Source of the DNA: Chiloscyllium plagiosum
Lineage: Eukaryota
NCBI RefSeq assembly: GCF_004010195.1
Contig: NC_057719.1
Coordinates: 29,426,822-29,490,821, forward strand
Length of the DNA: 64,000 nucleotides
Direction: 5' to 3'
The notes beneath the pieces were generated by a model. It ran no database searches and had not been told where the DNA came from. It saw only the letters and a program-made list of their open reading frames with translations. This document shows, piece by piece, positions 19,845 to 61,986 of the stretch (the first letter of the stretch is position 1; every line of letters starts with the position of its first letter). A program made the translations under genes and the position numbers.

Positions 19845-20144
19845 TTACAAGGATGCCTTCCTTGAAGAAGCTCTCTTCCTCCCTCTACAAAACTTACAAG
19901 GATGCCTTCCTTGAAGAAACTCTCTTCCTCCCTTTACAAACAAAGACTTCAACCTACTGCGAATCCTCTTACAAGGATGCCTTCCTTGAAGAAGCTCTCT
20001 TCCTCCCTCTACAAAATTCCTGAAGAAGGGCTTATGCCCGAAACGTCGATTCTCCTGTTCCCTGGATGCTGCCTGACCTGCTGCGCTTTTCCAGCAACAC
20101 ATTTTCAGCTCTGATCTCCAGCATCTGCAGTCCTCATTTTCTCC
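19845..20144 (+). mobile_element. Short Penelope-like insertion with hammerhead and 15-bp TSD
   Basis: TTAAAGATCTATGAC at 19830-19844 and 20145-20159; three ~48-nt repeats; hammerhead core 20020-20047; the empty site is visible in copy 2 near 31804. Confidence 0.88.
20016..20051 (+). ncRNA. Minimal type I hammerhead ribozyme motif
   Basis: AUUC-CUGAAGA-A-GGGC-UUAU-GCCC-GAAAC-GUC-GAUU; core intact, stem I has one mismatch. Confidence 0.75.
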
Positions 20145-20233
20145 TTAAAGATCTATGACACTAACCTACCAAGTGTTTAAATCTGGGGAGTTTTGTACCC
20201 CCAGATCTATTCAAATCTGTCTAAACCAGTTCA

Positions 20234-20254
20234 AATCCTGATGACGAGCCCCTA
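20234..20254 (-). promoter_or_regulatory. Primer-binding site, tRNA-Pro-like
   Basis: Minus strand TAGGGGCTCGTCATCAGGATT, 3 nt after the 5' LTR; resembles the tRNA-Pro PBS TGGGGGCTCGTCCGGGAT. Confidence 0.65.
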
Positions 20255-21869
20255 AACTGTTACGACACGAGGTAAACCCTCCTGCTCAATTTAACCCAGC
20301 AACACAGAAAGGATTTATCCCATGTTGTAATCTGTGAAAATTTGATAGGCAAAGAACTAGTTAAAGTAGAAATTACAACTTTATTTCTTAAAGTATACCA
20401 GAGCATAATTAACTAACAACTATTTACAACTCCTTCCACCAAACTATCTTTTACCTTCCCCTTCTACAATGTTAGTCTAATAAAACTCCCAATTATGATT
20501 TACAAAACAAAACTTACCTCAAAACCAGGCAGCTTTTGGTTCTTCTCTGTATTTCAGTCTTCTTTTCTTCTTCTTGGGGATTCTGCTTCACAGGTTACTG
20601 ATCAATAAAGGTACCATTGGGAAAGTGTTTTTTCATGCTGGTGGCTTGGCAGTTCTCCTCTCAACTATTCAATGTTCCCCAGTATTATACCCCCAAAGAT
20701 TTTGTCATTGGCTTTTAAGATTGTCAATATACAAAATTCAAACTGGATTGGAGTTTGGTATTTTTCGGGGTATGATTTAAACTGATTGGCCTAATACGAA
20801 TCTGTGTTTATGTTCCAGGCAACCAGCTAATTGAGTTGTTCGACCAAATGTTATTTTTTTTTTCAGAACAGTTTGTTCTGTCAGTTGGTTCTGTTGCTTT
20901 TAACTCTCTTAAAAGCACACACGTCTTCGTAACAGATTGCTTCCCCTAGTTCCTACTTGACCTGCTCTCTCTAAAGGCAACACATGCTCAGTTGCATACA
21001 TAACAAAAAGCACCCCTTCCACTCCGCACCAAATTCCCATGCTGCCTCCAAATTCCCTGAACTATATACTCACTTTGGCTGTGTTTTACTCCTGATATGA
21101 TCTGTCCTTCATGACTGAGTATGAAACAATTAAATGTTTTTAAAACTGATGTTCCTTTTAAACAATTTATGAACAGAATGGAAAACAATGTTGCATTTCA
21201 TTGGTGAAACTGATTTTATTTTGTCAGTCACCAACAAACTGGAAGAATAGTAAATTTTTTAATGAATAATTTGAATATTCCTGTATGCAAATGCTGCTTT
21301 TTTTTTTGCTGCTTTCAATTTCACTCATTTATGGTTTCCCTTTAGTTCCATGCCCTTTCTACCAGATTTCTCAAGCCTTTTGCATAACTAGGTTGTATTC
21401 TGTAATTTCCTTTTTATTGTTCACTGTATGAACAATTAATTTCTGTTTTTCATGAGATTTGCTCATTTTCTTTTAAAGAGGAGAAAAATAAAGTAACATG
21501 AATATAACTAATTTTGGTTTTTACTCTTTTCACCATATTAGTGTAGTTGTTTACATCATTGACCTTGTCAAGTAAGAAAACTTTGTTTGGAAAACTTTGC
21601 ATGTTAATTGCTATTATTGTTTCATGTACAAAAATTAAAAATAAATTGATTATTGTTTTAAAATGCTCCCAGAAAATACCTGAAAGATGTAAAATTTTAA
21701 CCATATGAATTGAACCAGGCTTTTTTCTTAACAAAAAATAGTTTAGAAATGAGCTTGTGATTTAATGAAATCTGGCCCTTTTGTGATTTCTACAATATTT
21801 CCAATTAAATAAACAAGAACACCATTTGACTGTCCTCCATGGTTTTAATAATTGGCAGCACTAATTATT

Positions 21870-22800
21870 CTTGGAGAATCAGTTTTAAAGGATAGGTCAA
21901 CAAAGATGCAGTGAAAGACTTTTAAGGTTATATTTCAGGATGCACAGAATGGATACATTCCAAAAAGTAAGAAACATTCCAAGCCACAGACCTGCCATTT
22001 GTGGTTAACTAGAAAGGTTAAACATAGTGTCAAACTTGAACCCCATGTGCAAAGACAGTAGCAGGTCTGTCAAATGACATTGGACAGAAATGTTTTTGCT
22101 TTATAGTAACAAAATCTAGCACAAGCGCAAAACAGAAATACTCAAGGATCGTAAGAGTTTCAATAAATACTTAAAGAAGAGTTAACAGAATGAGTTAGTC
22201 CTATAGAAAGTGAGTCTGGAGAAGTAATAATGGAAAAATTAGATGGCAGTTGACTTGAGCAGAGATTTTGCATTCAGTTTCAGTGTAGAGGATAAAAGTA
22301 ACATCTAGAAGCAGTGATATTTATGGAAATGAAAGGGAGAGAGGAACTCTGGAAAAGAACTTAAGTGGTGTTGAGAAAATTGATGGAGCTGATAATTGCC
22401 TAGATTTTGGATGTCATCCTAGGCTTTTAACTGAAGTCACTAGTAAGATAGTTACATTGGTTTGAATTTTCCAAAATGTCCATTGATTCATGGAATGTTC
22501 CATTTTTAGATTGGAAGATAACTAATGTAGTTCCTTTAGTCAAAAAGTGGAGATAAAAAGTGGGAAACTAGCCAGTTAACGTTTGTCTTCAGAGCAAATT
22601 TAAAACTGTTATTCAGGTGTTACAATAGGGAAGTAAAGTCCTTTTTGAATATTTTAAGGCAGAAATAGATATATCACTTGTTAAGTAAAGGGGTGGGGGA
22701 TTAGTGGTTGGGTGGGAATGCAGATTTGAAGTTACAATCTGATCAGAGGTGACTAAGGAAGCTTGGAACTGAGTGGCCTACTCCTTGCTTGTGTTTGCAA
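21870..22800 (+). mobile_element. Old, heavily decayed CR1-type LINE pieces
   Basis: Remnant motifs (gattggaagataactaatgtagttcctttagtcaaaa; tail gagtggcctactcc). Confidence 0.55.
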
Positions 22801-23281
22801 TTTTTTTTTAGTTTAGTGAGGCGGTGATGGTAGTTTTGACTTTTCCATGGAAATGGAACTCCTTTTTATACTGGTTTGTTTAAGATTTGGTAGATCAGTG
22901 TTTTAAATGGACTGTCATTACAGTTCTGCCAAATATAACCAAAGCTCTTATACTTTGAGCTATTACACATGGGAAGTTCAACATATCCTTTTCTAAGCTT
23001 CTTTAACATTTTCCACTTTTCTTACCCATTAAAATATGCAATGTTTGACATATTTAGAAATGAAAATCTTACTTATCTAAAGCATTTGCTGCTATCTACC
23101 GAACTACTTGAATTGTTATATTGCAGTTATATTGCTAATTGAACACCCAAGATCTGCTTTTTGTGAAACAAGACTGAAAATCCAAGGAAATTTTATTTGT
23201 TAAGCTAGGAAATAATCATAGCTTTTCATTTTCTTGTTTACTATGTCTTAGTAGCTTTGATCTTTCTTCTTTACTTTGCAG

Positions 23282-23521
23282 ATTGACATTTTGATCAACA
23301 ATGCTGGTCGTTCCCAACGCTCCTTATTCCTGGACACCAACCTTGATGTCTATGAAGCCATAATGCACCTGAACTTCCTTGGTACAATCTCGCTGACCAA
23401 ATGTGTGCTACCTTACATGATAAAGCAGGAGAAAGGACAAATAATCACTGTCAGTAGTTTGGCAGGTCTTGTTGCTGCCCCTATTTCTACAGGTTATGCA
23501 AGTAGTAAACATGCTCTTCAG
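23282..23521 (+). CDS. DHRS7: DHRS7 exon with the SDR catalytic motifs (human exon 4 equivalent)
   Basis: tttgcAG|ATTGAC...CTTCAG|GTgata; 240 nt, phase 0; IDILINNAGRSQRS...TVSSLAG...GYASSKHALQ contains NNAG, the catalytic Ser and YxxxK. Confidence 0.95.
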
Positions 23522-60856: not shown

Positions 60857-61477
60857 AATTTGGATTTTAAAATAGAAGTAAAACAGATTTGTGGTATTCA
60901 TGCTGTGAAGGCAATCTTTGGAAACAGGTCAAAAATTTATTTGGAATAGTGACCTAGATCATTTTCAAGAAAGTACATGACATAAGTACTTAACAAGATG
61001 CCTGTTAACTGATTAAGTGTTTATAATGCTGGGTTTTAAGACACATAGAAAAATAATGGTCAGGTGTCTTGAGTAGTCTGAGTTCAGTTCAGAACAATTT
61101 CATAACAATGGAAGGACAGGTTAGTTGGAGTAGTCTTCAAACTCTGAGAATTTGCGCAGAAGTTTTCAAACTCTCAGAAAGAAAGTTTTGGCCATCTGAA
61201 TTAGAAAATTGATTAAGAAAGAAAGAGTTAAAATAAGATTGGTACTTTACTAGATGTAAATGACTGTAAAGGATATTGGTGTGAAATTGCTTTTTTCTGT
61301 TTTTGTTTTGTGTTCCTTTATTAAAGATCATTGACATCCTTGTGTGAAAATGTTCAATAACAAACCACCATGATTACTAAACTGTTTCACTCTGGGATCT
61401 GAAACAGTCGACTATTAGTGTCAGCTGGGATCATAATAAAGCCGTTAATGCTTTTTAGTCAGGAGATGAAACCTTAC

Positions 61478-61581
61478 CTTAATGCTAATACAGCAGTATC
61501 CAAAACCACGTTCCAAAACCAAGACCCATATCAATCTATCCTGGAAGCGACATAGGAAATGAGAGCCAGGTGAAGGATTCC
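61478..61581 (-). CDS. PCNX4: PCNX4 coding exon
   Basis: Minus strand: ttcaAG|GGAATCC...ATTAAG|GTaagg; 104 nt, phase 1 to 0; (G)[34 protein letters not shown]. Not in the ORF track. Confidence 0.9.
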
Positions 61582-61619
61582 CTTGAAATAAAGTGTCTAG
61601 TAATTAGTACACAGAATAC

Positions 61620-61689
61620 ACTGGAATTTTAAAACAAAATGCAAATACAATTTATATATACTGTGACAGATTTCACTGTACACTATTTT
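61620..61689 (+). repeat. 70-bp exact direct repeat, copy 1 (copy 2 at 63825-63894)
   Basis: ACTGGAATTTTAAAACAAAATGCAAATACAATTTATATATACTGTGACAGATTTCACTGTACACTATTTT is present twice. Confidence 0.9.
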
Positions 61690-61778
61690 TATAAAAGGCA
61701 AAGAATCAATTTTGTATACACACATTCTGTATATGCATGTTTACTGTAAAAATTTAAAGCCAGGATTAGCAAATGAAG

Positions 61779-61986
61779 AGCTGAAAATTGTGTTGCTGGA
61801 AAAGCGCAGCAGGTCAGGCAGCATCCAAGGTGCAGGAGAATTGACATTTCGGGCATAAGCCCTTCTTCAGGCTTATGCCCGGAATGTCGATTCTCCTGTT
61901 CCTTGGATGCTGCCTGACCTGCTGCGCTTTTCCAGCAACACATTTTTCAGCTCTGATCTCCAGCATCTGCAGTCCTCACTTTCTCC
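61779..61986. mobile_element. Fold-back PLE mini-insertion in a PCNX4 intron
   Basis: ~85-bp inverted arms; TSD TTAGCAAATGAAG (61766-61778) / TTAGCCCATGAAG (61987-61999). Confidence 0.85.

Follow-up and report, generated by a model that had tools for sequence, protein, structure and literature searches.

The window analysed here, a 64,000-nucleotide stretch of the Chiloscyllium plagiosum genome (contig NC_057719.1, positions 29,426,822 to 29,490,821), carries seven related insertions in its 19845..61986 region, most of them built head to head. The initial annotation had listed seven insertions bordered on either side by target-site duplications (TSDs) of 13-15 bp (at least 10 bp in one), and all seven are present at the coordinates it gave. 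In our view, they probably represent copies, truncated at the 5' side and for the most part arranged head to head, of the hammerhead terminal repeat of Penelope-like elements (PLEs) of likely Neptune type, and were probably produced by two-site priming of both strands. The insertions are as follows, with arm ends given in nucleotides relative to the hammerhead cut site:

c1, 19845-20144, plus strand: non-inverted insertion between 15-bp TSDs (19830-19844 and 20145-20159), made up of post-tail fragments at 19844-19892, 19893-19940 and 19943-20015 joined to a pLTR end at 20016-20144
c2, 24465..24683: old head-to-head copy, untailed arm ~24479-24568 (minus), tailed arm ~24573-24673 (plus), TSD of at least 10 bp (24465-24474 and 24674-24683)
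c3, 32306..32517: head-to-head copy, untailed arm 32320-32398 (minus, end +61), tailed arm 32398-32504 (plus, end +97/98), 14-bp TSD
c4, 33980..34175: head-to-head copy belonging to a different subfamily, with tailed arm 33994-34098 (minus, end +103), untailed arm 34098-34161 (plus, end +58/60), 14-bp TSD
c5, 45438..46702: complex copy between 15-bp TSDs (45438-45452 and 46688-46702), with a minus-strand body of untailed pLTR (45453-45625), read-through past the tail (45626-45736), the tail itself (45737-45771) and a piece of upstream pLTR (45772-45819); there follow a stretch of Ns (45820-46180), unrelated DNA (46181-46485) and a tailed pLTR in inverted orientation (46486-46687, plus)
c6, 48230..48991: tailed arm 48244-48884 (minus) extending into the ORF, inverted arm 48885-48977 (plus) whose end lies 35 nt upstream of the cut site; TSD of 14 bp
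c7, 61766..61999: head-to-head copy, untailed arm 61779-61871 (minus, end +63/65), tailed arm 61870-61986 (plus, end +98), TSD of 13 bp with 2 mismatches

The interior of c5 is known in part, since 361 bases of it (45820-46180) are an assembly gap; the unrelated DNA that follows is not repeated elsewhere in the window and matched neither a protein nor a Pfam family.

The TSDs are exact in five of the seven insertions (15 bp in c1 and c5; 14 bp in c3, c4 and c6), and that of c2, exact over 10 bp, reaches 13 bp if two mismatches are allowed. The same search applied to 400 random position pairs never returned an exact repeat longer than 9 bp; a duplication of the c7 type was reached by chance in 9 of these pairs, and that of c7 is counted only because it is located at the element ends. 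The lengths carry an uncertainty of 1-2 bp, as junction bases at several copies fit TSD and element alike. Based on these seven copies with both flanks, a staggered target cut of about 14 bp is supported in this window. The TSDs are 57-87% AT, against 60% for the window.

The identity of the source element is indicated by c6, which holds a coding remnant:

48487..48881, minus strand: broken 3' end of the element ORF, a linker with a CX4CX2C finger followed by a GIY-YIG endonuclease

This remnant, with one stop codon and frameshifts, scores 23.9 bits against Pfam PF01541 (cut-off 22.6), confirming the GIY-YIG domain that the initial annotation had noticed in one member. It is 77-82% identical to Chiloscyllium punctatum proteins. 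One relative (P0003, 77% identity over the remnant) shows RT motifs and then GIY-YIG, and matched no solved structure by sequence; full-length relatives of 750-950 aa combine RVT_1, GIY-YIG and a DKG motif. The PLE-type RT upstream of the endonuclease is thus judged from relatives, c6 being truncated and the window containing no RT. In c6 the end of the ORF is followed by a pLTR with a damaged core, and the same pLTR occurs with intact cores in c1 and c5. Together with inverted or partial-tandem insertions bearing a 30-40 bp tail, the GIY-YIG domain, the PLE-type RT and the pLTR hammerhead after the ORF are the hallmarks of EN+ PLEs, and this family shows all four, the RT through its relatives. 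The CX4CX2C motif of c6 is conserved in our alignment A4, and 33 of the 42 long relatives carry a looser version of it. The finger does not fit the Penelope/Poseidon clade, whose linker lacks one. The tie to Neptune-type PLEs drawn by the initial annotation holds as far as the C-terminal GIY-YIG with a Neptune-type linker (CX2-5CxxC) goes, but this motif is common to Nematis as well. We favour Neptune over Nematis because only Neptune and Poseidon were found among the vertebrate genomes of a 2026 preprint (bioRxiv 10.64898/2026.07.22.740005), and the source element is likely a PLE of the Neptune type. The sequence past the tail would correspond to the ORF's beginning; the post-tail peptide has no protein relative and no tblastn match among the long relatives.

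The description of the whole family as hammerhead-bearing proved too generous. Complete CTGANGA-stem II-GAAA cores, four in number, are found in three insertions (c1, c7 and, twice, c5):

20020..20047, plus strand: complete minimal core of c1, comprising CTGAAGA, one extra base, a 4-bp stem II and GAAACGTC, with the predicted cut after 20047
45515..45542, minus strand: complete minimal core in the untailed arm of c5
46561..46588, plus strand: complete minimal core in the tailed arm of c5, with a possible 4-bp helix I
61843-61870, minus strand: decayed full core in the untailed arm of c7

The core of c6 is damaged by a 3-nt deletion, and the CTGANGA box is absent from c2, c3 and c4. All four cores show the features of the minimal hammerhead, namely CUGANGA, an extra base, a G-C-closed stem II, GAAA, palindromic positions 15.2-16.2 and NUH, with a helix I of 2-4 bp. 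An Rfam search returned no hammerhead, its microRNA hits being hairpin matches far below the cut-off, and the 24-nt core pattern gave three single matches in metagenome contigs, of which the one inspected (L001) is unrelated sequence. The region after the cut has a recurring predicted hairpin, but z is -0.2 to -1.1 and none of 16 pairs covaries among seven sequences; we do not put it forward as a structure.

At their long 3' ends, the copies stop 97 (c1, c3), 98 (c7) or 99 nt (c5, c6) after the cut-site GTC. The common end at about 97-99 nt proposed by the initial annotation therefore stands for these five, but not for c4, which has a different tail ending at +103 and lacks the end motif quoted there. 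Moreover, a second fixed end, overlooked earlier, lies at +58 to +67, about 35 nt upstream of the main one, which rules out a single fixed end; the tail is accordingly about 35 nt long (about 43 in c4). That element sequence runs on past the common end, as previously suggested, is verified by the read-through at 45626-45736 in c5. These results support a reverse-transcription start that is fixed and internal, downstream of the hammerhead cut rather than at it. Contigs of three related organisms point the same way in a survey that lists 18 of 870 loose ends and 15 of 106 joints, some of them uncounted. The best-supported loose ends fall after 20145 (918, 669 and 1135 contigs) and after 20144 (486 and 671 contigs; absent from the top six of one organism, X8), and consensus agreement there is 0.33-0.35, i.e., the flanks are unrelated. 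Further piles among those listed fall after 20100-20105. Loose ends before 20016 were set aside as evidence of 5' clustering because c1 has its own junction there.

Head-to-head inversions are seen in six of the seven copies, c1 being the non-inverted one, and five of these six have a tail at one end and none at the other. The exception is c6, whose second end lies at -35 rather than at the short site. Long-plus-short pairing thus holds in all five inverted copies whose two arms both traverse the pLTR end, an outcome with a chance of 1 in 32 under equal odds for mixed and matched pairs. In these five copies, it is the untailed arm that extends further 5': -18 vs -9 in c3, -109 vs -101 in c5, -29 vs -19 in c7, at least -7 vs -2 in c2 and -6 vs about -2 in c4 (read by eye, as the aligner's -10 crosses the palindromic centre). 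The centres have 8-10 unpaired bases. As expected from one template, the partner arm is the nearest sequence in four of five insertions; in c7, the tailed arm differs from c1 at 1 position and from its own partner at 4.

Such hairpins could also form if a single cDNA folded back and primed itself, or if an antisense template did so, as has been suggested for rotifer Penelopes; one end would then be a true RT start. The near-identity of arms within an insertion (163/165 in c5, 58/60 in c4, 67/70 in c3) and the loop-like unpaired centres are consistent with this, and self-priming from palindromic junctions has been argued for in PMC3846280. We nevertheless consider it rather unlikely: in 5/5 copies the tail is confined to the tailed arm and the extra 5' bases to the untailed one, so each arm has bases missing from the other, and simple fold-back of either cannot yield both. 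Among the opposite-strand joints listed from the contigs, some also connect 20017-20035, at the hammerhead front, with 20064-20110, a tailed arm beginning far downstream of the other's break and lacking a loop. A hybrid, in which a folded-back short-site cDNA is joined to a tail-only cDNA, is possible and needs two primers as well. The best-supported joint among those listed connects 20105 to 20145 on opposite strands, tail to tail, and is not explained by two-site priming.

Two further readings were weighed. If hammerhead self-cleavage set the 5' ends, with RT running off cleaved RNA, arms should begin at the cut, and in c2 and c4 the tailed arm does so to within ~2 nt; both arms of c4 break at the cut site or just before it. 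The other 10 of 12 pLTR-ending arms retain upstream bases (-6 to -109 and, for c6, a reach of some 540 nt into the ORF), which excludes cleavage as a general rule, and PAc, the Poseidon of Anolis carolinensis, inserts unchanged with ribozyme mutants (PMC11167929); we hold this reading to be improbable. Short, palindromic and TSD-flanked as they are, the hairpins might finally be assembly artefacts, c5 spanning an assembly gap, or else MITE-like DNA transposons with terminal inverted repeats. This is scarcely credible: the ends are unequal, with a tail on one side, the centres differ, the same sequence continues into the GIY-YIG/RT ORF in c6, six copies are gap-free and independent runs from three organisms show the ends again. 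The recurring ends, the ORF link and subfamily kinship largely refute this reading.

By sequence, the seven insertions fall into about five subfamilies, and kinship does not track structure: of the palindromic copies, c3 is nearest to c6, which bears the ORF (3 differences), and c7 is nearest to c1, which is not inverted (4 differences). Because kinship cuts across structure in this way, we read the copies as probable 5'-truncated products of full-length elements of several subfamilies rather than a dedicated mini-element family. The initial annotation's notion of non-coding, ribozyme-bearing mini-elements is not upheld, given this kinship and the lack of a whole core in most copies. Its more specific form, a SINE- or retrozyme-like unit that is transcribed as a short RNA of its own from near the hammerhead front and mobilised in trans by a Penelope protein, appears unlikely. 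It would account for 5' breaks no more than 32 nt upstream of the cut site in 9 of 12 pLTR-ending arms (c4 by eye), for the 320-nt pLTR-to-pLTR unit of c5 that lacks nearly all of the ORF, and for a hammerhead-to-tail part 14-35 times deeper in contigs than the post-tail part, although summed depth is not copy number; tandem retrozyme-like pLTR-derived units have been reported in vertebrates, including one chondrichthyan (bioRxiv 10.64898/2026.07.22.740005). Yet breakpoints differ among all copies, the kinships of c3 and c7 run against it, and most copies have lost the ribozyme core and are therefore unable to serve as ribozyme-bearing masters. Among the seven insertions, all with different centres, the short copies share neither one structure nor one lineage apart from ORF-bearing ones, and their visible sequence contains no tandem array with complete hammerheads in two or more consecutive units, the upstream unit of c5 entering the N gap.

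The family is an ordinary but very abundant vertebrate PLE. The initial annotation knew of no such uniform geometry in sharks, and our literature search likewise found no description of such elements in a shark; internal RT starts (PMC11167929) and the inverted layout of pLTR, tail and TSD (PMC3846280, PMC8557442) have nonetheless been published, so that the claim of novelty mostly falls away and is not supported for the mechanism. A typical EN+ PLE insertion consists of an inverted pLTR, an optional 30-40 bp tail and a TSD (PMC3846280; Fig. 2 of PMC8557442). As in that layout and in Adineta Pen2a_Av (PMC3846280), the shark copies have head-to-head pLTRs, a ~35-nt tail at one end only and a TSD that encloses the entire insertion; also shared are partial tandems and the capture of unrelated DNA between pLTRs, here in c5. 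They differ in TSD length, 13-15 bp here vs 8-10 bp in the rotifer cases (PMC3846280), and, unlike the canonical layout, most are 170-300 bp long and without an ORF. Neither TSDs of 13-15 bp for such elements nor the rule that the untailed arm extends further 5' was found in the literature searched. As in the metazoan PLE pLTRs of PMC4209133, including fish Xena, Poseidon and Neptune, the hammerheads lack helix III, have a palindromic 15.2-16.2, an extra base before stem II and a G-C closing pair, and many are solo motifs outside full elements; the loss of the core in most copies is a difference, and neither "Shark" nor "Callorhinchus" occurs in the main text of that study. Non-LTR retrozymes (PMC7229834; bioRxiv 10.64898/2026.07.22.740005) are likewise non-coding, pLTR-related and equipped with a type I hammerhead, a likeness that extends to the 320-nt unit of c5, but they form tandem repeats with a hammerhead per unit, unlike the dispersed single or inverted copies seen here.

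The closest mechanistic parallel is PAc (PMC11167929). In vitro, both strands are cut and extended, uncleaved RNA is used, and RT starts lie 82-92 nt past the cut (97-99 nt here) and 111-118 nt into the ORF, with the tail between the two starts. Like the shark family, PAc has a minimal hammerhead that closes with the GAAACGTC core; its genomic ends lie at internal RT starts past the cut rather than at it, two starts define its tail and its targets lean towards AT. It belongs to the Penelope/Poseidon clade, in which the linker finger is absent (PMC8557442). Start sites did not differ between strands in PAc, so strict long-plus-short pairing is unexplained by that study, whose available part gives neither TSD length nor a rule for pairing tailed with untailed ends, and describes the completion of PLE integration after first priming as not yet validated.

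In the process that we propose, the element protein would cut the two target strands at points 13-15 bases from each other, and the resulting ends would both prime reverse transcription at two fixed RNA sites about 35 bases apart, presumably within a single RNA. cDNA begun at the downstream (tail) site may trail and displace that from the upstream site, both would usually stall in the hammerhead or just before it, and their ends may be joined via short matches, giving an insertion shaped like a hairpin and tailed on a single side. What is observed here comprises the TSDs, both end positions, the inverted arrangement, the remnant of GIY-YIG and the division into subfamilies; both-strand cutting and extension, two tail-defining internal starts and the use of uncleaved RNA were shown in vitro for PAc. 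Against the model, c6 breaks the pairing rule (1/6 inverted copies) and c1 is not inverted; matching arms would also be expected from two RNAs of one source locus. A stricter version, with obligate two-ended priming on a single RNA by a dimeric enzyme, a fixed 14-base stagger, strand-assigned starts (the tail vs 35 nt upstream) and a trailing polymerase that displaces the leading cDNA, is one we entertain tentatively and with more doubt than belief.

The value of the family lies in its being a dataset, whose many short copies with clean TSDs would bear, genome-wide, on end pairing, arm trailing and the tightness of the cut stagger. A fixed two-ended mechanism, if true, would be relevant to compact RT-endonuclease proteins as insertion tools; and if two-ended priming is indeed obligate, the very numerous shark mini-copies would be a natural, directly readable record of the second-strand step of this class of elements.

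Seven insertions had been annotated as one family of hammerhead-bearing mini-insertions of a Penelope-like element (PLE), and each was confirmed at its coordinates. Their target duplications (TSDs), taken as the longest direct repeat across the paired junctions, are given with them:

19845-20144 (c1): non-inverted copy; exact TSD of 15 bp
24479-24673 (c2): old, inverted copy; TSD of 10 bp
32320-32504 (c3): palindromic copy; exact TSD of 14 bp
33994-34161 (c4): inverted copy; exact TSD of 14 bp
45453-46687 (c5): inverted copy; exact TSD of 15 bp
48244-48977 (c6): inverted, ORF-bearing copy; exact TSD of 14 bp
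61779-61986 (c7): palindromic copy; TSD of 13 bp with two mismatches

In 400 random position pairs searched likewise, an exact repeat never exceeded 9 bp, and 9 of the 400 reached at least 13 bp when two mismatches were allowed. As one or two junction bases often match element and target alike, 13-15 bp is a fair TSD range, and this part of the initial annotation stands, with exact duplications of 14-15 bp in c1 and c3-c6. At many 3' junctions of c1 and c3-c7, one or two bases suit the target as well as the element's further sequence, which may hint that a short stretch of base-pairing accompanies priming. When the whole window was searched with a profile, no other good copy was recovered; a decayed head-to-head remnant at 51198-51385, much older, shows a weak relationship to the family (E 0.064 in the profile search, match 51198-51228), and a search for its TSD gave none that was convincing.

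Six of the seven copies are head-to-head inversions of the hammerhead-bearing terminal repeat (pLTR), a feature absent from the initial annotation. Relative to the predicted cleavage position of the hammerhead, the arm carrying the tail (the last ~35 nt before the long 3' end) stops at +97 to +99 in c1, c3, c5, c6 and c7, whereas that of c4, with a tail unlike the others, reaches +103. The opposite, untailed arm of c2, c3, c4, c5 and c7 ends between +58 and +67, some 35 nt before the tailed end, such that all five pair one long with one short end; the inverted arm of c6 ends at -35. Thus, the proposed fixed 3' end does recur, but it is accompanied by a second one. The left part of c5 extends 110 nt beyond the tail, bearing out the claim that the element continues past this point, and hence both end classes lie inside a sequence that is longer than the copies show. 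An open frame of ~50 codons in the post-tail sequence (45626-45781, minus strand) had no protein match.

We then queried contigs of three organisms with region 19941-20175 (post-tail sequence, hammerhead and tail), on which 110,279, 76,847 and 76,753 records were placed, respectively. Among the best 18 of at least 870 loose-end rows, the best supported lie after 20145 (918, 669 and 1135 contigs), with others after 20144 (486 and 671); their long flanks show low agreement (0.33-0.35), as expected if many independent insertions stop at the tail. Further piles in these rows, after 20100-20105, have about ten element-like letters followed by mixed ones, which we infer to be the short end as it appears in subfamilies that have diverged. 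Compared with the peak depth of the post-tail part, the depth summed over the tail, which is no copy number, was 14-, 18- and 35-fold higher. Among the best 15 of at least 106 joints, opposite-strand joints tie the hammerhead front to 20064-20110, which fits tailed arms of variable length. The opposite-strand joint with top support in this set (11 and 4 contigs, two runs) runs tail to tail, 20105 to 20145, short end meeting long end, and possibly reflects tandem palindromic units.

The hammerhead belongs to the minimal class reported from the terminal repeats of PLEs (PMC4209133). The description of the members as hammerhead-bearing applies in full to the three of seven that keep a complete core; that of c6 has a 3-nt deletion, and c2, c3 and c4 begin downstream of the CTGANGA box. 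Nine of the 12 arms ending in the pLTR 3' region break at most 32 nt upstream of the cut (c4 judged by eye), two of them within ~2 nt of it, and the remaining three break at -101, -109 and about -540. Breaks lying mostly upstream of the cut indicate that most templates were uncleaved. The same was found for PAc, the Poseidon element of the anole Anolis carolinensis, whose insertion is independent of ribozyme cleavage (PMC11167929).

A separate family of mini-elements would be expected to keep its members together. Instead, in the tailed-arm comparison the palindromic c3 differs from the ORF-bearing c6 at 3 positions and the palindromic c7 from the non-inverted c1 at 4, while c5, c4 and c2 fall into groups of their own and the palindrome centres differ in every copy. 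We therefore consider such a family unlikely: within the limits of seven copies, the structure arises at each insertion rather than by inheritance. The exception is c5, with a 320-nt pLTR-to-pLTR unit lacking an ORF and abutting a 361-base gap. Between its pLTR arms lie 305 bases of unique, unrelated DNA (46181-46485) with no protein or Pfam match, possibly captured host sequence, as in rotifers, where pLTRs flank DNA captured in a similar way (PMC3846280). In c1 (19844-20015) and c5 (45626-45736), post-tail sequence lies directly upstream of the pLTR with the ORF skipped, and 49 nt of this post-tail sequence are repeated in c1, which suggests template jumps between short RNAs.

A simple fold-back is ruled out as the origin of the inversions, since each arm holds bases absent from its partner. 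More probably, a single RNA served as template for both target ends: the cDNA begun at the tail site would trail and displace the other, synthesis of both would stop close to the hammerhead, and the cDNA ends would be joined. This model builds on the staggered duplication, the two end classes and their mixed pairing in five of five copies, on arms of the same insertion being mutual nearest sequences (4/5), and on the untailed arm being longer toward 5' than the tailed one (5/5). PAc offers precedents in that its protein, a predicted dimer, cuts and extends both strands, and reverse transcription starts at two internal sites bounding the tail (PMC11167929). Against the one-RNA model stand c6, the arm distances of c7, the tail-to-tail joint and the lack of strand preference of PAc in vitro (PMC11167929).

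The main PAc start lies 111-118 nt into the ORF, whose start codon precedes the hammerhead cut by 26 nt; measured from the cut, this amounts to 82-92 nt, according to how one counts (PMC11167929). Close to this, an ATG within hammerhead loop II of c1, c3, c6 and c7 (GTG in c5) lies 111-113 nt before the tailed end (20034-20144 in c1). The GIY-YIG remnant reported for one member was recovered in c6, where the terminal repeat is joined to the disrupted end of an ORF encoding a CX4CX2C finger and a GIY-YIG domain. The closest proteins to this remnant come from Chiloscyllium punctatum (82% and 77% identity), followed by one from a stingray (56%), which places the window in a shark-like genome; one of the C. 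punctatum proteins, P0003, has RT motifs upstream of the matching region, and full-length relatives of 750-950 aa combine an RT with a C-terminal GIY-YIG domain. As a finger in the linker marks Neptune or Nematis (PMC8557442, in part), its sequence would place the c6 element in one of these.

The window also holds a second hammerhead family (4877-5343, minus strand), a two-unit partial tandem spaced ~278 nt and 94% alike over 189 nt, which ends ~82 nt past the cut and for which no TSD was found on searching. Its ATG directly follows CTGAGG, as in the PAc template, and it is likely Poseidon-type. Also present are six or more copies of an abundant repeat of ~300 bp whose size and spread are SINE-like (e.g., 10933-11191, 31516-31774, 42734-42992 and 47489-47747).

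The novelty proposed for geometry and mechanism mostly does not hold: PMC3846280 and PMC8557442 call the inverted pLTR and tail layout typical, a curation guide (PMC8969392) covers 5' truncation and inverted pLTRs, and an internal RT start is already published (PMC11167929). The whale shark is among the species with recorded Penelope elements (PMC8455134), and pLTR-derived retrozymes are reported for one chondrichthyan (bioRxiv 10.64898/2026.07.22.740005). In the largely open-access literature searched, we found no account of this shark family, of Penelope elements with TSDs of 14-15 bp, or of twin priming by such elements; the family may well be deposited in Repbase or Dfam already. The insertions are thus a real, abundant element of a known kind, to which the tight TSD range and the arm asymmetry, observed in five to seven copies, add modest new points.
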